DNA of 64,000 bases from positions 1-64,000 of IMG/VR virus record IMGVR_UViG_3300042946_001661; one strand, given 5' to 3'. The position numbers and the translations under genes are program-made. The notes under the pieces were generated by a model. The model ran no database searches. It had not been told where the DNA came from and saw only the letters and a program-made list of their open reading frames with translations. Below are positions 27,943 to 37,602 of this stretch, piece after piece. The first letter of the stretch is position 1. Each line of letters starts with the position of its first letter. The DNA comes from a virus.

Positions 27943-28380
27943 TTAGCAACCTAAAACTATTCTTAATGTTAAGCTAATCGCTTGTAAACTTGAAATTAAT
28001 ACAGGATTTGGGAATTTATAATACCATATTACAGAATCAGAATTATTAACAATATAATATCCATATATTGTACTTTCTACAATATCGCTGCATCCCCAGA
28101 CCAGAACTTCATCGTAATAAGAAACAACATCCCCTGATTCTACTGTTGCTGCACTCCAGTTATTCTTATCCAGTTCTTTAGAGGAATATCCATCAAAAGT
28201 ACATTCGGTAAACGACAAATTGTTTTCATTCAAGTTGTTCTTAAACAACTTTATCACATAATCATTACAAGAAAGTAGGCTGTCTAAATAGTCCGGCTTT
28301 GAACTTGGAACAGGCTGTGCGACTCCTAATATTGGCGTTGGCGTTGGAGTTGGAGTTGGAGTTGGGGTTGGAGTTGACAT
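27943..28380 (-). CDS. Virion structural-like protein with N-terminal PT repeats
   Basis: (TP)n; LF.N..IYGYY.V pattern of phage structural proteins. Confidence 0.65.
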   Translation of the reverse strand: MSTPTPTPTPTPTPTPILGVAQPVPSSKPDYLDSLLSCNDYVIKLFKNNLNENNLSFTECTFDGYSSKELDKNNWSAATVESGDVVSYYDEVLVWGCSDIVESTIYGYYIVNNSDSVIWYYKFPNPVLISSLQAISLTLRIVLGC

Positions 28381-28386
28381 ATAGTT

Positions 28387-28394
28387 TATTTATA
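28387..28394 (-). promoter_or_regulatory. T4 late-promoter-like box TATAAATA, 6 nt before ATG 28380
   Basis: Exact match to the T4 late consensus. Confidence 0.55.
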
Positions 28395-28842
28395 CATTTT
28401 CAATAATTTTAGATTTTATTAAAATGTTTTTTTCTTTATCTACAAGATCTTCAGAGTTATATGTTTTTAGAGTTGACCAATGAGGGTCATCTTTTGGAAT
28501 ATATTCTTTTTTAGTATAATAAAAAAATTCTGCTATGTATTCGTATTCTTTATTTTCAACTTCATCAACACTCATACCTGAAAGGCGATCATGCAAAATT
28601 TCTTTTAATACTTTTACCGAATCAATCCATCTGGCTTTTGCCATCTTTTGAATAATAGCAAGAGCTGAATACGCATTGTTTTCTAATGCATTTATTACAT
28701 CTTTTTTAAGATCTCCTGGTCCGAATTTTGCTTTTGTTGTATAACATGCAATTACTTCATCTTTGCTAGGTTTATATTTTAAAGAAACATCTTTGAAGTA
28801 TTCTGAAAAATTACTTTCATCAATTATCAACTCTTTGCTCAT
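28390..28842 (-). CDS. Hypothetical protein
   Basis: 150-aa ORF. Confidence 0.7.
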   Translation of the reverse strand: MSKELIIDESNFSEYFKDVSLKYKPSKDEVIACYTTKAKFGPGDLKKDVINALENNAYSALAIIQKMAKARWIDSVKVLKEILHDRLSGMSVDEVENKEYEYIAEFFYYTKKEYIPKDDPHWSTLKTYNSEDLVDKEKNILIKSKIIENV

Positions 28843-30517
28843 CTTTTTCCTTTTTTCTAAGAACTACTATTCTGTAGTCGTCTTCTTTATTAACAGTACT
28901 TTTTTTGAAAAAATTTCTTGGTCCAGTGCTAGCTATTGTGTATGTCTTGAAGCCTTTGCTTGGGGCACTTAATCTTACTCTAAGCAAACTTCCAGGAACT
29001 AATTCATTTTGAAAATTAGCATAATCATCTTTCCATACATTTATAAGACCTTCATCACAATTACAATCTTCTGCTTTTACCTGATAGTATTCTGCCTTTT
29101 TACCTTTCTTTTTACTACAAGATATTACCTCTATTTCCACAGGAAGAGTATCTCCAGAATCAGGCTCTAGTGTGTCGAAGGTTAATCCTCCCCTATAATC
29201 CGGACTGTCCTTTACATTACTGTGCCAAGCAAATCCATAATACTTCTTTTCACAGGCTACTAAATCATCAAATTCTTTTTTCAAGTTTTTATCAATTTTA
29301 GAATCATCAATAACAAAACCTTCTAGTCTAGGTTTCTCCAAATCTTCTTTATCTTCATATCTTTTTTTGGCAGTCTGTATCTTGTTAATCATTTTACATA
29401 TGTTTTTCCAAGCATCTTTGTTATTAATAATAAGTTTTAAATATCTCTTTTTCCAATCATCACATGATTTACTGCCAATTTTCAAAGAATCTAAATCAAT
29501 ATAGTCTATCTCCCCACTAACTACTTTATTTTTAATAAAATCAGTATTCTCTGCCTCCTTGATCATTGAATAAAGAATCTCTTTATTTTTTTTTGCTGTA
29601 TTTGCATACCTTTTTTTTCTATCTTGATTTTTCTTTATATAATCTTTATATTTTTCAGAGAACATAAAAAGAGTGTAAGGATCCGAATCGGAGAAGCACC
29701 TAAGAGAAAGTAATGGCTTTAATACACTAGAATCTGTTCCGAATCTTTCAACAAAATCTTCAAAGTTTTTATATGGCTGTCTCTTTACTATTTCTTTTGC
29801 TATAGGCTCTCCTATTCCTTTTATATTAGAAAAACCAAAATAAATATCATCTCCTATAAGGCTGAAGTTTTCTTTAGACAAATTAATATCAACAGGCTTT
29901 AAATCTATTTTATGCTTAGTTATTTCTTTTCTATATTCTTTAATTTTATCGGCATCATTTTCACATGTTAAAATTGCAGTATAAAACTCATGAGGAAAAT
30001 GAGACTTTAAATATAAAAGTCTTGAACTAATATGAGTATAACATACTGCATGACTTTTATTGAAGCCATATTCTGCAAAACTTTCAATAAGTTTCCATAA
30101 ATTTTCTAATTCTTCTTCAGAAGAATCCAAGTTCTTTTTTCCATTATTAATAAATGTTTCTTTGTATTTAATAAACTGTTCTACTTTTTTCTTACTAATA
30201 GCCTTTCTTACAGCTTCAACATCTCTCATTGGAATATTTCCAACCATGTTCAATATTTTCATTACTTGTTCTTGGTATACAATTACCCCATAAGTATCTT
30301 TTAATATTTCGTTTAAAATAGGATGTAATTTATATTCTTCTCTGCCTCTTTTTCTTTCTATGAATCTTTCATGCATTTTACAGTTATGAACAACAATATC
30401 TTGAGCAATAAAATTAGGCTCATCGATATAAAGATCATCTTCAATGATTAAAGAAATATCATAACATTCATCTTCGTCAACTTTTTCTATAGAAATTATT
30501 TCATCATAATCAATCAT
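28820..30517 (-). CDS. dnaE: DNA polymerase III alpha, fragment 3: C-intein plus C-terminal extein (fingers, HhH, OB)
   Basis: VVHN/C junction, then TYGVIVYQEQ, RKAISKKK, FAEYGFNKSH, IKGIG, OB-like tail. Confidence 0.93.
   Translation of the reverse strand: MIDYDEIISIEKVDEDECYDISLIIEDDLYIDEPNFIAQDIVVHNCKMHERFIERKRGREEYKLHPILNEILKDTYGVIVYQEQVMKILNMVGNIPMRDVEAVRKAISKKKVEQFIKYKETFINNGKKNLDSSEEELENLWKLIESFAEYGFNKSHAVCYTHISSRLLYLKSHFPHEFYTAILTCENDADKIKEYRKEITKHKIDLKPVDINLSKENFSLIGDDIYFGFSNIKGIGEPIAKEIVKRQPYKNFEDFVERFGTDSSVLKPLLSLRCFSDSDPYTLFMFSEKYKDYIKKNQDRKKRYANTAKKNKEILYSMIKEAENTDFIKNKVVSGEIDYIDLDSLKIGSKSCDDWKKRYLKLIINNKDAWKNICKMINKIQTAKKRYEDKEDLEKPRLEGFVIDDSKIDKNLKKEFDDLVACEKKYYGFAWHSNVKDSPDYRGGLTFDTLEPDSGDTLPVEIEVISCSKKKGKKAEYYQVKAEDCNCDEGLINVWKDDYANFQNELVPGSLLRVRLSAPSKGFKTYTIASTGPRNFFKKSTVNKEDDYRIVVLRKKEKDEQRVDN
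30383..30517 (-). mobile_element. Split intein, C-half (45 aa)
   Basis: I.SIE..CYDI..PNFIA..IVVHN followed by Cys+1. Confidence 0.9.
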
Positions 30518-31523
30518 TTTTTATACTTTCAAAAAAATTAATAACCCTTTTGTCGTTGCGAAACTTTTTTCTACTCATGTTACAATCATTGAACTGCCAG
30601 TAATGAAAAAGAAAATTATTTTCTATCGCATAACTTTCACCAGCCTTTAATTTTGCTTCAGATTTTTCGGCATCAATTTGATAAACATATCCTGATTTTA
30701 ACTCTACTAAAAATTTTTCATTAATTAAAAAATCCGGAAAATATTTTTTATTTTTGCCGCAATAATTATAAGCAATACAACAAGGTGTTGCAAACCAAGA
30801 TTTAACATATGGGGAATCATCTAGTAGTTCGGAGAGCCATAATTCAAGTCTCGATCTAAGAAAAAAATCACAATTCATTTTTTTTGAATAGAATGACTTG
30901 CCTGTGCTACTAAATACATAGTCAGGATGAACTTTTCGATAATTATTATTACAGTCTTTAGAGCAAAATTTAATTTTAGGTCTTGGCTTTCCTCCAACCC
31001 ATATAATAATTTGTTTATCACAAAATGCACAATTACTATATTTGGCTTTGCCTTTAGCCAAAGGGTATAATCTCTGGTAGTCTTCGGGTGTCCGCTTTTC
31101 TCTCAATTGTTTAAGCTTTTCATTCCCGGCAGATGTGAAAGCAAATAATAATTTTTTTCTTTCTTCGGGAGAAACAGATTTAACCTTACTAACCCAAGCG
31201 TCTGACGCCATTTTAACAACTTTTTTTCTAGTCTCTGGTTTGAGGATATCTCCTTTTTCATATGCTTTTTTCATACGCTCAGATCTATTTTTTTTAACAT
31301 GTGCTTGATTGCTATAATCTTTGACTTTTTTAGCAATTGAAAATACAGTCTCATTAGATTCTTTGGTTTCACCTTTATTCCAAACATCGGGTATTTGATT
31401 TTTATATTCTTCTGTTTGCTCGGGAAACATTTGCAAATACTTCGTTTTTTTAATTTTATGAGACGAGTTTAAATGTCTGTAAAATTTGTCTGAAATTTCT
31501 CTATTGCATAATTTACATATCAT
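30510..31523 (-). CDS. Free-standing putative homing endonuclease (C2H2 finger, CxxC..C..C, TnsA-like PD-(D/E)xK domain) between the intein halves
   Basis: CKLC..H...H; RSRLE, YFPDF, VELK; GGAGG SD; stop overlaps the C-intein start. Confidence 0.8.
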   Translation of the reverse strand: MICKLCNREISDKFYRHLNSSHKIKKTKYLQMFPEQTEEYKNQIPDVWNKGETKESNETVFSIAKKVKDYSNQAHVKKNRSERMKKAYEKGDILKPETRKKVVKMASDAWVSKVKSVSPEERKKLLFAFTSAGNEKLKQLREKRTPEDYQRLYPLAKGKAKYSNCAFCDKQIIIWVGGKPRPKIKFCSKDCNNNYRKVHPDYVFSSTGKSFYSKKMNCDFFLRSRLELWLSELLDDSPYVKSWFATPCCIAYNYCGKNKKYFPDFLINEKFLVELKSGYVYQIDAEKSEAKLKAGESYAIENNFLFHYWQFNDCNMSRKKFRNDKRVINFFESIKND

Positions 31524-31561
31524 TGTAGCCTCCAGGACTATTCAATAATATGTAGGAGATT

Positions 31562-32875
31562 TTATTTTAATTTTTTAGCAATTTTTTGCCCAACAGATAA
31601 TTTTTCGGCTTCAATAAATTCATCTTTATCGGTAAGGATTTTATGTTCATTTGAACACAAAATTACTTTTCCAGATTTAGTTTTAATTTTTAATAATTTT
31701 TTATAACCAGTTTTTATTAAAATAAATTTTTCAGTATATTTAATTTTCTTTTTTTTACTTAAATAGGCAATTTTATCTAACCCAGGCTTCAAATCTTTTA
31801 TTTTTTTATATCCAAGATTTGTATTAACTTTTACATCTTTTTGAAGACAATTCAAAGGACCTGGACGATATAATGATGAGTAGGCAACAAGATCTTCAAA
31901 TCTTGTAACACCACCAGCTTTAGCTAATGATCTAATACCTGGGCTATCAAACTGAAAGATACATTTAAGGTCTCCTTCATTAGCCATTTCTAGGGATTTT
32001 AAATCATTCCTATACTCATCTATGTTGCTCCAATTGCCTTGACCAGGAAATGCACATATTTTATCAATACCTTTTCTATCTTTTATAAGCTTACAACACT
32101 TTGCAATCTGAAGAAGATTACTGATCACAAGCAAATCAAATTTAACAAGTCCTACTGGCTGTAGATCTTGTCCATGAAGACCTTCTACCCAAGCACTTGC
32201 CTGAGGGCTATCTTTTCTTTTTATAAGAGGAACAAGATCGGTTAAAGGAATAGAGCTTACAATCAAACCTCCAGCATGTATACCTGTCCCTCTGTTTCTA
32301 TTAATTAGTTTTTGAGCAGCCTTTGCTATATCTGGGTGTTCTTCGCAGTATTTCTTAAGCATAGGATCAGTTTTCATAGCTGAATCCCATGTGAGAACTT
32401 TTCCTTCATCATCTTTTGTTTGAAGATTTGTTGTTAAAGCGAGTATTTCTCCTCTTTCTTCTCCGTGAACTCTAACCATATCGATAAGAGAGGATTTAAT
32501 ACCAAAAGTAGTATAGTTTCCTATATTACAGACATATTGCTCTCCAAATGTTTTAGGAGCCCATTCATTCTTTAAAAAATCACGAACAGCAGGAATAAAA
32601 TCCACATCGATATCCGGAGAATCACCTTGTACATAATTTGGATCTTTTTCTATATCAAAATTTGGTACTATTTCTAGTAGCCAACACACCAAAAGATTAT
32701 TTTCATTATCTGGATAATTTACATTTCTGGTCACCATATCTAGAAAGTAATTTTCCTTATTTTGAGAAATTATCTCTTGTTTTTCCCATTCTAATCTTTT
32801 TTGATATCTTTTATCTTCATACAATCCTTTTTCTTTTAATTTTTCTTCACAAATTTTAAATATGTTTGATTTCAT
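31562..32875 (-). CDS. dnaE: DNA polymerase III alpha, fragment 2: catalytic palm/thumb plus N-intein
   Basis: PDIDVDF, GIHAGG, GLVKFDLL, IFQF, LYRPGPLN, then intein start CL. Confidence 0.93.
   Translation of the reverse strand: MKSNIFKICEEKLKEKGLYEDKRYQKRLEWEKQEIISQNKENYFLDMVTRNVNYPDNENNLLVCWLLEIVPNFDIEKDPNYVQGDSPDIDVDFIPAVRDFLKNEWAPKTFGEQYVCNIGNYTTFGIKSSLIDMVRVHGEERGEILALTTNLQTKDDEGKVLTWDSAMKTDPMLKKYCEEHPDIAKAAQKLINRNRGTGIHAGGLIVSSIPLTDLVPLIKRKDSPQASAWVEGLHGQDLQPVGLVKFDLLVISNLLQIAKCCKLIKDRKGIDKICAFPGQGNWSNIDEYRNDLKSLEMANEGDLKCIFQFDSPGIRSLAKAGGVTRFEDLVAYSSLYRPGPLNCLQKDVKVNTNLGYKKIKDLKPGLDKIAYLSKKKKIKYTEKFILIKTGYKKLLKIKTKSGKVILCSNEHKILTDKDEFIEAEKLSVGQKIAKKLK
31565..31849 (-). mobile_element. 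Split intein, N-half (95 aa)
   Basis: Block A CLQKDVKV..G.KKIKDL; block B SNEH; L.VG..I end followed by stop. Confidence 0.9.
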
Positions 32876-32934
32876 AAAAATATTTTTATTACTCTATATT
32901 ATATATAGATTATCTACTCACATCAAGGACATAT

Positions 32935-34029
32935 ATGAAAAAATCAATGAAAAAAGCAATTCTTATTTACAAAGAAGGAAAATCAATAGAAAAGTCCGCA
33001 GCTGAAGCGGAAGTATCTTTTCAAGGACTTCAATATCAACTTAAAAAACTTGGTTTAACAAGAAGTGCCGAAGAAGCCGCTCACAAGAGCTATACATCAG
33101 AGAGTTTAAAAGAAGCATTGAGTCTTTACGAAAATGGAAAAAGTTTAAATGAAGTTAATAAAATAACAAAGGTTTCTCTACACACATTGAGAAAAGAAAT
33201 AAAAAGATTAAAAATATCAAAAAAGAAAATTATTAAATATGATCATATATTAGAAAAATCAATAGATTTATACTTATCAGGATTATCCACCATAAAGGTA
33301 AAAAATATAACTGGTATAGGGCTTGGCAAGTTAACAAAAAATCTTAAAAAAAGAGGGCTTATTCGTAGTAATAAAATAAATTCAAGAAAATATCATGTAA
33401 ATTATGATTTTTTTAAAAATATAGATAATGAACACAAAGCGTATTGGCTTGGTTTTATTTATGCTGACGGTTACATTAGCCGAATAAATAAAAATAAAAA
33501 AATTGGAATATCATTAAACATAAAAGATATGGATCATCTAGAGGTTTTTAAAAAACAAATTAATGCTACATATCCAATAAATATTTATAAGTCGAAGTCT
33601 TTTGGAGGAGTAGAAATAGAATATTGCAGACTACTTATTACTTCAGATCAATTGTTTGATGATTTAATTGACAAAGGAGTTTTCGAAAAAAAGACATTAA
33701 TATTAAAATTTCCAAATGAATCTATAGTTCCAAAAAACTTACAACATCATTTTATAAGAGGATATTTTGATGGTGATGGATCTTTCAAAAAAAGTAATGG
33801 TAAATATTATGTTTTTAATCTATGTGGTACAAAAGAATTTCTACTAAAATGTCAAGAAATACTTCATAAAAATACAAAACTAGAAAAAAGGCACAAGGAT
33901 AATAAAAACAACTATAGTTTTTCGATAGGAGGCAGATTACAAGCCAAAAAAATAGGTGATTACTTATACAAGAATGCTACTGTATACTTAGAAAGAAAAT
34001 ATAACAGATATAAAGAAATGTGTTTTTAA
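32935..34029 (+). CDS. LAGLIDADG homing endonuclease with N-terminal HTH repeats
   Basis: AYWLGFIYADG and FIRGYFDGDGS, LERK. Confidence 0.9.
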   Translation: MKKSMKKAILIYKEGKSIEKSAAEAEVSFQGLQYQLKKLGLTRSAEEAAHKSYTSESLKEALSLYENGKSLNEVNKITKVSLHTLRKEIKRLKISKKKIIKYDHILEKSIDLYLSGLSTIKVKNITGIGLGKLTKNLKKRGLIRSNKINSRKYHVNYDFFKNIDNEHKAYWLGFIYADGYISRINKNKKIGISLNIKDMDHLEVFKKQINATYPINIYKSKSFGGVEIEYCRLLITSDQLFDDLIDKGVFEKKTLILKFPNESIVPKNLQHHFIRGYFDGDGSFKKSNGKYYVFNLCGTKEFLLKCQEILHKNTKLEKRHKDNKNNYSFSIGGRLQAKKIGDYLYKNATVYLERKYNRYKEMCF

Positions 34030-34053
34030 TTAAATAAAATTTTAGTACAGATG

Positions 34054-34061
34054 TATAAATA
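34054..34061 (+). promoter_or_regulatory. T4 late-promoter-like box TATAAATA
   Basis: Exact match upstream of the pspC SD. Confidence 0.5.
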
Positions 34062-34077
34062 TAATCAAAGGAGTAAA

Positions 34078-34251
34078 ATGAAAGTAGACAAGAAAAACGC
34101 CATGATTGGCGGAGTCTGTGCTGGTTTGTCGGATTCAACTGGGATACCGACTGCGGTTTTTAGGCTTGCTTTTCTATTTGCATTTTTACTTGCTGGGATG
34201 GGTCCTATAATTTATATCATTTTATGGATCATGATGCAAACAAAAGAATAA
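34078..34251 (+). CDS. pspC: PspC domain protein
   Basis: MIGGVCAGL...GI....RL......YIILW; AAGGAG SD. Confidence 0.9.
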   Translation: MKVDKKNAMIGGVCAGLSDSTGIPTAVFRLAFLFAFLLAGMGPIIYIILWIMMQTKE

Positions 34252-34261
34252 TGGAGAAAAA

Positions 34262-35209
34262 ATGCCTTTCAAAAAATTTAATGAATTCTTAAACGAACAA
34301 AAGAAAAATAAGAAGACTAAAAAAAGTGATAAAAAGGCATTAGGAATTAGTGGCGATAAGTCTCTTGTTTATAAACCAAAAGTTCATAAATATGATAAAA
34401 TTAAAGACAAGGGACTCGGAAATATTGGAGATGAAAAAAACATCTACGAACCAGACACAGGTCCAGAGCTACAGAAAAAAGCTCCAGAATGGCATAAAAC
34501 AAACATTAAAGAATGGTTAAACAAAACAAAAAAATTATCTGTTTCTGAATTTGCAAAAAAAATTCAAGAAGAAAAAAGTGTAAAAGTAAATATTAATAAA
34601 ATAAAAAATGCTGAAGATCTTATTGGCAATTTTGTAGAAACATTAAAAAGCAATCCAAAATTAATAGAGGTTGCATCAAGAGAGTTTAACAGATCCGGAT
34701 TACTTGAAGGTTTTATTGTAGAGCTCAGTAAAATAAAAAGATCAAAAAGAATACACGAATCAATTAGTGAGCCTGTTGGGTTTGAAGACGAAGAAGGCAT
34801 GGAAGGCATGGAAGATGAAGAAGGCATGGAAGGCATGGAAGATGAAGAAGGCATGGAAGATGAAGAAGGCATGGAAGATGAAGAAGGCATGGAAGACGAA
34901 GAAGGCATGGAAGACGAAGAAGGCATGGAAGACGAAGAAGGCATGGAAGACGAAGAAGGCATGGAAGACGAAGAAGGCATGGAAGACGAAGAAGAAGGTT
35001 ATAGACGCCATCGTCATCGTCACCATCATCATGACGAAGAAGATGATGAGTTTGGGGACGAAGAAATGGAAGATGAAGATGATAGCGAAAATTTAGATAG
35101 CGATGATCTTGAGGATCATGGTTATAATAAAAACCAAGATATGGAAGATGATTCGCCCCTAGGGAGAAGATCTGGCATGCGTAGGGATTATTTTTCAGAC
35201 GAAATTTAA
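34262..35209 (+). CDS. Basic N-terminal, highly acidic C-terminal protein (possible prohead core/scaffold-like)
   Basis: FNEFLNE start; EDEEGM repeats; His-rich patch. Confidence 0.75.
   Translation: MPFKKFNEFLNEQKKNKKTKKSDKKALGISGDKSLVYKPKVHKYDKIKDKGLGNIGDEKNIYEPDTGPELQKKAPEWHKTNIKEWLNKTKKLSVSEFAKKIQEEKSVKVNINKIKNAEDLIGNFVETLKSNPKLIEVASREFNRSGLLEGFIVELSKIKRSKRIHESISEPVGFEDEEGMEGMEDEEGMEGMEDEEGMEDEEGMEDEEGMEDEEGMEDEEGMEDEEGMEDEEGMEDEEGMEDEEEGYRRHRHRHHHHDEEDDEFGDEEMEDEDDSENLDSDDLEDHGYNKNQDMEDDSPLGRRSGMRRDYFSDEI
34784..34993 (+). repeat. 18-bp tandem repeat GAAGAYGAAGAAGGCATG (about 10 copies)
   Basis: Direct reading. Confidence 0.95.
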
Positions 35210-35243
35210 AAAATAAACAATTAACAATTAACAATTATAATTT

Positions 35244-35423
35244 ATGAAAAGTTTTAAACAATTCAAAGAAGAAAAAGAAAAAGAAGAACTAAAAAATAAT
35301 GATAGGGTAGCAAAAGCTATAAAAATGGGAAATGCCGCGGGCAGTCTTCCACTTAGCTCTCATAAAGAACGAAACGAACGAAGAAAAGACAACATCCCGT
35401 CGAAGTACTACAAAGGAAAGTGA
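35244..35423 (+). CDS. 59-aa protein MKSFKQFKEE... (capsid-targeting-like start)
   Basis: Manual translation. Confidence 0.6.
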   Translation: MKSFKQFKEEKEKEELKNNDRVAKAIKMGNAAGSLPLSSHKERNERRKDNIPSKYYKGK

Positions 35424-35437
35424 AATAATTTACTAAA

Positions 35438-36826
35438 TTAATCCTTAAATTCTAAAATCATACTTCTCCCACCTCTAGATTCTGAAAGAAATCTAGAGAA
35501 TAGTAAGTCTTCTTTTATAGGATCAACATCCGTTATTCCTAGACAGTAGCATACGAGAGAACCTCCAGCACTCCCTCGACCCGGTCCTACTGCATCGCTT
35601 CCATCGCCCCATCCTAATATTTCAGGACAAACTCGTCGGGCTTCATCTGTCATCATTTTTTGAATAAGAAAATAACTACTAAATCCTTTTCTCTTGATTA
35701 ATGATATCTCTTCTTTTATTCTTGAAGAATATACTTTTGTTTTTGGTAAATTTCTTTTATTAAAACCTTGTACGACCAAATCTCTTAATTTGTCATCAGA
35801 ATTTTCAATATTAGGCAGCTTTAAACTTCTATCGAAGGTCACACCTTTTGCCATTTCGCATATTTTAACTGTATTCTTTTTAGCTTCTTGAAACAATTCA
35901 TATGGAATAATATCTTTGTAATCACTTAACCATTTTTCATTAAGCTCTTCTTCACTCTTCATCCAAAGATTAGCATCTTGAAGCTCAAAAAAATCAACCA
36001 TTGCATCTTTTTGTTTTGCTTCTTCTATCTCCTTTAAAGTTCTATTTGTTTGAATCATCAACATTAATCTTTGATAATGACTATCTTCTTTTTTGCAATA
36101 ATGAACATCACAACTTACGATCAAAGGTAATTTATATCTTTCATGACACTTGATTATAAAAGCGTCATAAGCAAACTGTTTTTTAAAGTCTAGTAGCATT
36201 AATTCTAAATAATAATGCTCTCTACCAAACATTTCCAAATGCTTTTCAAGCATTTGGAATCCAGCTTCTTCTCCACCCTTGTCAAAAGCTCTACCTATCT
36301 CGCTATTATAGCAACAGCTTGTAAAAATAAGACCTTCTCTATGCTTTTTTAATTGTTCGTAATTGACTCTAGGCTTTCTATAGAAGCCTTTAGTCCAACC
36401 CCAACTAGTTAAACGTACTAAATTTTTATAGCCCTCTAAATTGTACGCTATAGCCAGCAAGTGAGGACTAGCTTTAAAAACATCCATCTCATCTGGAGAT
36501 AATTCTTTTGTAAAATCTTGAAGATCCTCAAGACCAGAACTTTCTGGTTGTAATGAATTTATATATAATTCTGAAGCAAATATTGGGGATAATTTATTTT
36601 TATCTTTATGTTTATCACATATCTTATCGCATATTTTAATTTGTCTGGGTACAGCTCCTAACATTCCGTGATCTGAAACTGTTAAGAATTTTTGATTAAT
36701 TTCAACGGCGCGATTACCTGCTTCCTCAACGGTTTGAAAACCATCAAGCAAAGAATAGTCTGTATGGAGGTGAAGATGTTCAAATCCAACAATTTCTACC
36801 TTATCTTTCATGCAACAACTTTCCAT
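35438..36826 (-). CDS. dnaE: DNA polymerase III alpha, fragment 1: PHP domain plus start of the palm
   Basis: HLHLHTDYSLLDG, SDHG, FYRKPR, DVHY, GPGRGSAGGSLV.Y.LGIT.VDP, LLFSRFL; stops before PDID. Confidence 0.93.
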   Translation of the reverse strand: MESCCMKDKVEIVGFEHLHLHTDYSLLDGFQTVEEAGNRAVEINQKFLTVSDHGMLGAVPRQIKICDKICDKHKDKNKLSPIFASELYINSLQPESSGLEDLQDFTKELSPDEMDVFKASPHLLAIAYNLEGYKNLVRLTSWGWTKGFYRKPRVNYEQLKKHREGLIFTSCCYNSEIGRAFDKGGEEAGFQMLEKHLEMFGREHYYLELMLLDFKKQFAYDAFIIKCHERYKLPLIVSCDVHYCKKEDSHYQRLMLMIQTNRTLKEIEEAKQKDAMVDFFELQDANLWMKSEEELNEKWLSDYKDIIPYELFQEAKKNTVKICEMAKGVTFDRSLKLPNIENSDDKLRDLVVQGFNKRNLPKTKVYSSRIKEEISLIKRKGFSSYFLIQKMMTDEARRVCPEILGWGDGSDAVGPGRGSAGGSLVCYCLGITDVDPIKEDLLFSRFLSESRGGRSMILEFKD

Positions 36827-36993
36827 TCTTTACCAGTAAAAATGTATAACACGTTAAGATTATTGTTAAAATAAAGATCCCCAACTTTTAAATTTTTTGG
36901 AGGTAATCCTACATACACCCCACTATACTGTTTTTTCGAAGTTTTATTTATAAAAGATTCAAATAATTTATTTTTTTCTTTTTTTATAGCCAT
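36808..36993 (-). CDS. Small hypothetical protein (PP....GDLYF motif)
   Basis: Probable start ATG 36993. Confidence 0.55.
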   Translation of the reverse strand: MAIKKEKNKLFESFINKTSKKQYSGVYVGLPPKNLKVGDLYFNNNLNVLYIFTGKEWKVVA

Positions 36994-37033
36994 GAATATA
37001 ATTCTAGCAGAAGGCTGCTGATTTAGCAATCTA

Positions 37034-37061
37034 TTGACTTTTTTAAAAATTTTTGTATCAT
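37034..37061 (+). promoter_or_regulatory. Sigma70-type promoter TTGACT-N16-TATCAT, 7 nt before ATG
   Basis: Consensus match. Confidence 0.6.
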
Positions 37062-37068
37062 AAATTAC

Positions 37069-37602
37069 ATGAACAGATTAAAAAATCAAAGAGCTTATCT
37101 TGCAGGAGCTATAGATCGTTGTCCAAATTTAGGAATTGCCTGGAGAGAATCCATAACTCCTTTTTTAAAAGAAAAAGGAGTTACTGTTTTAAATCCAATG
37201 AAAAAATCTATAAATCTTGGCAATGAAACAGGTGAATCTAGAGATCATAGGCTTAAACTTAAAGAGTCTGAAAACTATGATCAACTAAGTGTTATGATGA
37301 AAGAAATAAGAAATATTGATCTTAGAATGGTTGATATAAGTGATTTTTTGATAGTTAATATAGATTTAGATATACACCCATGCGGCACCTACGAGGAAAT
37401 TTTTATAGCAAACAGATCAAAAAAACCAATAATAATTCACATGGAACAAGGAAAAATCAAAACTCCAGACTGGTTATTTGGAACATTACCTCATAGCATG
37501 TTTTTTTCTACATGGGAAGATATTAAAAAATATTTAACACATGTAGATAGCGAAGAATTTATAGAAACTAAAAACAGATGGAAATTTTTTAATTTATGTT
37601 AG
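37069..37602 (+). CDS. Nucleoside 2-deoxyribosyltransferase-like protein
   Basis: YLAG.I, WR, LNP, D...SD, GT.EE. Confidence 0.8.
   Translation: MNRLKNQRAYLAGAIDRCPNLGIAWRESITPFLKEKGVTVLNPMKKSINLGNETGESRDHRLKLKESENYDQLSVMMKEIRNIDLRMVDISDFLIVNIDLDIHPCGTYEEIFIANRSKKPIIIHMEQGKIKTPDWLFGTLPHSMFFSTWEDIKKYLTHVDSEEFIETKNRWKFFNLC

Follow-up and report, generated by a model that had tools for sequence, protein, structure and literature searches.

C-family replicases are commonly regarded as single-chain catalytic subunits, and a split DnaE is reportedly known from cyanobacteria, as Wu in 1998 and Caspi in 2003 are said to have described. In a survey of ~2000 bacterial genomes, the cyanobacterial split intein and frameshifts were the only ways in which dnaE came to be divided (PMC3919608). 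The combination of a split intein with a free-standing Vsr/TnsA-like endonuclease between its halves, the 'fractured gene', is known, among others, from three DnaE loci, including Lake Gatun (Dassa et al. 2009, PMC2677866), and Aeromonas phages have intein-less splits of gp43A/B and NrdA, whose pieces co-purify and are active without covalent rejoining (PMC2988022). The closest precedent for the locus described here comes from group 2.2 jumbo phages, whose minimal Pol III alpha module is predicted, in the passages dealing with it, to be split in two proteins (Iyer et al. 2021, Viruses 13:63, PMC7824862). We analysed 64,000 nucleotides of viral DNA (hereafter the window), positions 1 to 64,000 of the IMG/VR virus record IMGVR_UViG_3300042946_001661, which is 83.6 kilobases (kb) long, estimated to be 17% complete and of ~29% GC. 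According to its open reading frame (ORF) list and Pfam, three minus-strand ORFs of the window, here called fragments 1, 2 and 3, jointly correspond to one DnaE-type polymerase. As judged from sequence, and with a probability that we put at roughly 60%, they encode a replicative DnaE of two non-covalently associated subunits (here from three genes) with a composite active site.

The module described by Iyer et al. is like the window in that the cut falls between the nucleoside triphosphate (NTP)-binding and the Mg/template-binding subdomains, and in that one enzyme is predicted from the two proteins. Compared by description only, that module is minimal, lacks PHP and the other Pol III domains and occurs alongside PolB, whereas the window has a full DnaE, relatives without PolB and a paralogous overlap of ~95 residues; the passages on the module mention no overlap. 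The nearest intact relatives of the window's enzyme are ordinary phage DnaEs of ~1180 amino acids (aa), unlike the minimal module. Cyanobacterial split DnaE and the fractured genes share with the window a dnaE in pieces, and the break between fragments 2 and 3 (break 2/3) is exactly such a case. At the break between fragments 1 and 2 (break 1/2), in contrast to an intein-split DnaE, the pieces would stay separate, and the cut goes through the catalytic fold and not through the fingers. The Aeromonas splits concern a family B polymerase and a ribonucleotide reductase, are recent and lineage-restricted, have no duplicated overlap reported and are tied to a homing endonuclease or an untranslated insert, whereas the split in the window is old, endonuclease-independent and accompanied by an overlap. 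The intact DnaE of uncultured huge phages of ~590-620 kb (e.g. LR756511.1) has the same neighbour genes, but is a single chain without the duplicated segment. We found no described intein-less split of a full-length phage DnaE in the searchable literature, which is no proof that none exists.

An earlier note on this DNA, made from the sequence and its ORFs, had proposed that the active-site motifs of a DnaE are divided between two genes by duplication and reciprocal decay. The ORFs of all three fragments lie on the minus strand at the coordinates given there, and the parts of the polymerase are arranged as follows.

35438..36826, minus strand: DnaE fragment 1, PHP domain and NTP-binding half of the palm (Pfam, intact-DnaE alignment, stand-alone homologues)
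35570..35587, minus strand: GPGRGS motif, fragment 1 residues 414-419 (invariance, aligned to Taq GPGRGS)
35441..35473, minus strand: conserved C-terminal tail GGRSMILEFKD of fragment 1, in place of the PDxDxDF strand (family alignment)
32624..32875, minus strand: N-terminal extension of fragment 2, residues 1-84, a palm-helix paralogue without RGS (hhalign, conservation)
31850..32623, minus strand: extein of fragment 2, comprising the palm's Mg-binding half, the thumb and the start of the fingers (Pfam, Taq alignment)
28820..30382, minus strand: fragment 3 extein, remaining fingers, HhH and C-terminal domain (Pfam finger and HHH_6, intact-DnaE alignment)

In Pfam, fragment 1 matches PHP (PF02811, E 7.8e-31) and then positions 2-98 of the DNA_pol3_alpha profile. 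Its ORF is 462 aa long, and the protein likely begins at the second ATG, at 36811 (MKDKVEIVGFEHLH), giving 457 aa, the same as the called protein P0004. This ATG shares ATGA with the stop codon of an upstream 73-aa ORF (36808..37029), an overlap that suggests translational coupling. The ORF of fragment 2 (31562..32875) takes up DNA_pol3_alpha at positions 100-259, beginning only at its residue 85, and continues into the first part of the fingers, after which an N-intein follows; PDIDVDF lies at 32597-32617, and KFD with D247 is also within the fragment 2 extein. The ORF of fragment 3 (28820..30517) opens with a C-intein, followed by fingers and HhH. The finger domain (PF17657) is spread over fragments 2 and 3, and the HhH (PF14579) is on fragment 3. 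No match to an oligonucleotide-binding (OB) fold was given by Pfam in the fragments; the C-terminus of fragment 3 still aligns to the end of the LR756511.1 DnaE.

When aligned to Taq Pol III alpha, as the earlier note had suggested, fragment 1 reached chain residue 459 and the fragment 2 extein covered 459-705. The claim that the break sits where the PDxDxDF strand belongs thus holds, give or take a few residues (profile positions 98/100). The palm motifs GS, DxD and third Asp are all present and invariant, distributed over two polypeptides. By its sequence the system would belong to the C-family DnaEs in its PHP domain, palm motifs, fingers and HhH, but not in having its catalytic core on a single polypeptide, even after splicing.

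The closest intact relative, the 1179-aa DnaE of the 595-kb uncultured phage LR756511.1, served as reference. Fragment 1 residues 11-451 align to its residues 4-433 with 52% identity, fragment 2 residues 14-342 to 340-693 with 45%, and fragment 3 residues 48-565 to 696-1179 with 39%. Since the stretches covered by fragments 1 and 2 overlap, the window has two counterparts of the segment 340-433 of the intact enzyme. The homology between the N-terminus of fragment 2 and the C-terminus of fragment 1, part of the earlier proposal, was borne out by hhalign at a probability of 92.6% (E 4.7e-7, 65 columns), with profiles built from 19 relatives for the former and 112 for the latter. The first 84 residues of fragment 2 are thereby related to the final ~95 homologous residues in fragment 1. 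When the two overlap copies were compared directly by BLASTP there was no match; the homology is seen by profiles only. Compared as a profile with the intact sister DnaE, the extension of fragment 2 reached a probability of 96.8%, and two deletions could be mapped in it. One, of about 14-16 residues (~16-20 in the alignment with fragment 1), takes out the GPGRGS strand and loop, in agreement with the claim that the second copy lacks RGS; the other, of ~6 residues, removes the LLFSRF helix with a conserved arginine.

The second copy had also been called decayed, and in this respect the proposal has to be revised, as the extension is a conserved module under purifying selection and shows no drift. 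Among 54 PHP-less homologues, W30, E31, E34, Y43, F44, N57, N59, N60, P79 and G84 of the extension are invariant. Its mean pairwise column identity is 0.52 versus 0.75 in the catalytic part that follows, and its ratio of nonsynonymous to synonymous substitution rates (dN/dS) is 0.12-0.23, where dS could be estimated, versus 0.03-0.15 for the rest of the protein. The AlphaFold2 model has the extension as helical, with a predicted local distance difference test score (pLDDT) >90. A phmmer search with residues 1-93 against 1.84 billion representatives gave 121 clusters (50% identity), all of them PHP-less, and nearly all matches lay at residues ~2-100 of proteins of 800-1340 aa. This position at the N-terminus of 121 clusters makes the extension the signature N-terminus of a PHP-less DnaE family. 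In the same single-sequence search no intact DnaE was among the matches.

The two parts of the fragment 2 gene can differ in their history. Between the related loci L005 and L008 the extension is 69% identical (dS 1.67) and the remaining protein 96% (dS 0.43), and a similar mosaic was seen between L014 and L016. The L005/L008 mosaic points to a recombination boundary, as read from the sequences, near the junction of extension and palm.

The catalytic residues that follow the extension, D88, D90, D92, K245 and D247, are invariant in the 54 fragment 2 homologues. On the other side of the break, R417, G418, S419, R445 and R451 are invariant among 52 fragment 1 homologues, and the palm segment, with a column identity of 0.74, is the most conserved part of fragment 1. 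The metal-ligand positions of its PHP domain (H53, E86, H122, C171/172, D240 and H242) are likewise conserved in these homologues, invariant or nearly so. The tail of fragment 1 has the family consensus RGGRSIxLEFKNxDP and a column identity of 0.67. In the monomer model of fragment 1 this tail has a pLDDT <50, and the GPGRGS loop is likewise of low confidence. We considered whether S-M-I-L-E-F in the tail might be a degenerate D-I-D-V-D-F strand. The hydrophobic positions agree, but six residues are too few and the tail is disordered in the model, and the idea is kept as a speculation only.

Inteins typically occupy functionally critical sites. In several fragment 1 homologues (P0005, P0092, P0093 and P0104) an intein sits exactly at GPGRG|S, with the serine of the motif as +1 residue. 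The inteins at this site are full-length or mini and recur in many matches of 810-890 aa; in other homologues inteins lie at different places, within the PHP domain. In the window, fragment 1 is intein-free at GPGRG|S and at the PHP-domain intein sites.

The same separation of the two halves was found far beyond the window. A search of 5.8 billion proteins gave >100 clusters of stand-alone fragment 1-like proteins, of 430-490 aa and 63-88% identity, on contigs of up to 634 kb, all ending in FSRF[LM]SE[SA]RGG[RK]S and the short conserved tail. With intact DnaEs, fragment 1 shares no more than 58% identity, which sets the split forms apart as a separate group. The best 120 longer matches to fragment 2 were all PHP-less and all started with the extension, and many PHP-less fragment 2+3 matches were on contigs equal in size to those with fragment 1 matches. 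Looking for the break in related phages, a check named in the earlier note, we found 21 viral loci with an ORF that starts at the extension and is immediately preceded by a stop codon. In 10 of these 21 loci, fragment 1 is encoded 2.5-7 kb upstream of fragment 2 on the same strand. Five further records were compared: in four the distance is 8-13 kb, and the contig of the fifth ends 5.6 kb upstream. Wherever a contig reaches far enough, the two genes are thus on one strand and 2.5-13 kb apart. In five larger relatives the only Pfam matches to DNA_pol3_alpha are those to ~2-98 and to 100-259.

The earlier note had also listed findings that would overturn its proposal, and none of them materialised. 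One of the five larger relatives, of 459 kb and 91% complete, has the two halves and no intact dnaE elsewhere. Misassembly is contradicted by contigs from four other lake metagenome runs, which cross both junctions with zero mismatches, and by the same split on 20+ independent viral contigs; the stretch itself is present in 23 DNA runs from 23 lake or fresh-water studies. Lack of homology and relaxed selection both failed, given the hhalign result and the purifying selection on both parts. Taken together, these data indicate an old split, fixed throughout a large and diverse clade of uncultured freshwater huge phages, and no local accident. A family B polymerase (PF00136) had no match in three relatives, including the 459-kb one, and in the relatives G006 and G007 we observed a protein of ~440 aa with a PolA-family polymerase domain.

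The spacer at break 1/2 holds four plus-strand ORFs, in agreement with the statement that opposite-strand genes separate fragments 1 and 2.

35244..35423, plus strand: small ORF of 59 aa (ORF list; no Pfam match)
34262..35209, plus strand: acidic repeat protein, family fam2, conserved divergent neighbour of fragment 1
34051..34251, plus strand: membrane protein with a PspC domain (Pfam PspC, E 4e-17)
32935..34029, plus strand: free-standing LAGLIDADG homing endonuclease with N-terminal helix-turn-helix repeats (Pfam LAGLIDADG_3, E 7e-11)

No intein domain was matched by Pfam at break 1/2, as the earlier note had held, and a scan of 28000-37500 with Rfam, by E-value, gave no intron family. The residue preceding PDxD is S, L, Y, M or F, the would-be +1 residue is Pro, and there is no HN. 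Break 1/2 shows none of the split-intein features of the Dassa type, and the extension is homologous to the DnaE palm; nor does the break resemble a group I or group II intron, the spacer having opposite-strand genes. In a scan for promoters and terminators the counts were not above those in shuffled sequences. A TTGATG-17-TATAAT match at 32898-32926 (minus strand) precedes the start codon of fragment 2 by 22 nucleotides, an interval that lacks a clear Shine-Dalgarno sequence; the match is consistent with a short-leader transcript of fragment 2's own, but is not evidence for one, and the scan overall was not above chance. One contig (run X2, another lake metagenome) links 32846 directly to 35202, without the LAGLIDADG, PspC and acidic genes. 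It may come from a variant lacking these genes or be an artefact, with 21 letters on one side of the joint.

In Pol-beta-like nucleotidyltransferases, including Pol III alpha, the GS loop and nearby arginines hold the triphosphate of the deoxynucleoside triphosphate (dNTP), and three aspartates hold the metals. In the enzyme that we favour, fragment 1 would supply PHP and the NTP-binding half of the palm, which includes the GPGRGS loop, the RFL arginine and R451, while fragments 2 and 3 would supply the DxD and third Asp, the thumb, the fingers, the HhH and the C-terminal domain. The split intein would, in the window, rejoin fragments 2 and 3, and the two resulting products would associate non-covalently to form a single active site from two polypeptides. 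The extension would then probably be a structural under-layer of the palm, a docking surface for fragment 1, or both. In the monomer model of fragment 2 the helical module is confident and the palm sheet of low confidence; together with the low-confidence parts of fragment 1, this hints weakly, as far as models go, at a palm that would become ordered only upon complex formation. Several points weigh against such an enzyme. Both copies of the helical layer cannot share one place in a canonical palm. Overall, fragment 2 gave a poor monomer model, with a predicted template-modelling score of 0.33 and a template-modelling (TM) score of 0.22 to DnaE structures, and little can be read from it; Foldseek retrieved DnaE structures with it at E 5e-7, but a TM of 0.22 does not allow the N-terminal module to be placed. 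The alignments are of modest depth and draw on one clade only, and with a PolA-like enzyme in relatives, DnaE need not be the sole polymerase. A more specific version, which we regard as tentative and on the whole doubtful, would see the overlap as the record of fission by duplication and complementary loss, with the extension and the loop and tail of fragment 1 forming a swapped, pseudo-symmetric interface, and with the dNTP-binding half and PHP being dissociable. If this were true, polymerase activity would be switchable through subunit assembly.

The earlier note had left two functional readings side by side, and of these the heterodimer with a composite site fits better, because RGS, R445 and R451 are invariant on fragment 1 and DxD, K245 and D247 on fragment 2. 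The other, in which fragments 2+3 are self-sufficient, their own module replacing the palm helices and NxNN standing in for GS, while fragment 1 is a detachable PHP subunit for proofreading or as pyrophosphatase with a vestigial palm, is in our judgement unlikely. It has in its favour that the extension keeps the palm helices, confidently folded and conserved, with N57, N59 and N60 invariant at a helix-cap position, that conservation in fragment 1 extends to every metal-ligand position of PHP, and that separate proofreading subunits are usual in Pol III, epsilon of E. coli being the known example. However, exactly the GS strand-loop and the arginine helix are gone from fragment 2, the elements that generally hold the dNTP triphosphate, whereas the same residues are invariant in fragment 1, where the palm piece is the most conserved region, unlike a vestige, and where inteins target GPGRG|S in homologues.

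Covalent rejoining of fragments 1 and 2 through a splicing system of protein or RNA that went unrecognised (trans-splicing, for example, or a split intein of atypical form) is very improbable. A split intein does serve the next break of the same gene, and the extension and tail are conserved, as splicing elements would be; yet the signals reported above (no intein match in Pfam, Pro at +1, no HN, no Rfam intron) speak against it, as do a fragment 1 tail without an initial Cys or Ser, an extension that is homologous to DnaE palm helices, unlike inteins, and a spacer of 2.5-13 kb of variable genes, part of them on the opposite strand. We give just as little credence to a split by insertion of the LAGLIDADG gene, or to a locus that is a decaying pseudogene or an assembly artefact. 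The free-standing LAGLIDADG gene is directly upstream of fragment 2, and phage genes are known to have been divided by insertions of this kind (PMC2988022), but among the loci compared this gene occurs in the window and its closest relative, L006, only, and the identical split is found elsewhere with other spacer genes. A pseudogene or artefact is at odds with purifying selection on both parts and with independent metagenome contigs that confirm both junctions. A heterodimer sharing one active site is thus the explanation that we prefer.

Gene order in the intact sister suggests how the split may have arisen. In LR756511.1 the order is fam2 (opposite strand), the AAA-type fam15, fam49 and dnaE, whereas in the split loci L021, L009 and L024 it is fragment 1, fam2 (opposite strand), genes including fam15 (and fam49 in L021), and fragment 2+3. 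It follows that the 5' third of dnaE now lies beyond its former upstream genes. The split probably arose once, in the ancestor of the clade. On the sequences compared, the first ~435 codons of dnaE would have been copied upstream past the neighbour genes, for example by a tandem duplication ending inside dnaE; the resident copy would have lost its first ~330 codons; and the remaining overlap of ~95 codons would have lost parts in a complementary manner and subfunctionalised. We infer this order of steps. The spacer genes, the LAGLIDADG gene included, were considered as the cause of the split and rejected, since the conserved ones are those upstream of the intact sister dnaE; the LAGLIDADG gene, being restricted to the window and L006, is a later arrival. 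Nor is the locus a case of 'genes in pieces' of the Aeh1 nrdA/mobE type, as relatives without an endonuclease have the same split. In every relative examined, fam2 is the immediate downstream neighbour of fragment 1, in opposite orientation. Its long repeat is of the (EDEEGM)n type, no Pfam family matches it, and in LR756511.1 a homologue precedes the intact dnaE; fam2 is thus a conserved partner of this locus.

Break 2/3 is an arrangement of an already known kind, made up of three elements.

31565..31849, minus strand: N-terminal half of a split intein, starting with Cys343 after YRPGPLN (Pfam Intein_splicing, 356-433)
30510..31523, minus strand: free-standing Vsr/TnsA-like endonuclease between the intein halves (Pfam DUF7487, Tn7_TnsA-like_N)
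30383..30517, minus strand: C-terminal half of the split intein, 45 residues, ending VVHN and followed by Cys46 (Pfam Intein_splicing, 3-45)

The homology of fragment 3 to intact DnaE begins at residue 48, just past the C-intein. The marks of a fractured gene, PLN|C, VVHN|C and an endonuclease ORF between the halves, are present at break 2/3 only. Fragments 2 and 3 are fused and read straight through in most relatives; L005 and L025 alone share the arrangement of the window, with the endonuclease ORF in the same place. A further site in fragment 3, FAEY|GFNKSH (residues ~153-158), which we take to be the classical cyanobacterial DnaE intein site, carries inserts of 0.6-1.3 kb in L005, L016 and L022-L025. 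It is uninterrupted in the window, and the long forms are marked as intein-containing by precomputed Pfam.

In the annotation of such phages, gene callers label the halves 'PHP domain protein', 'hypothetical protein' or 'Pol III alpha', and the replicase can be missed or mistaken for a pseudogene. The cut separates the nucleotide-binding from the metal-binding half of a Pol-beta-like fold, it is stably inherited, and intact sisters are available for comparison. The clade thereby offers a natural system for the splitting of an essential gene without a dead intermediate, where the overlap suggests that duplication came first and loss later, and for the assembly of an active site from two chains and the regulation of a replicase through subunit assembly.

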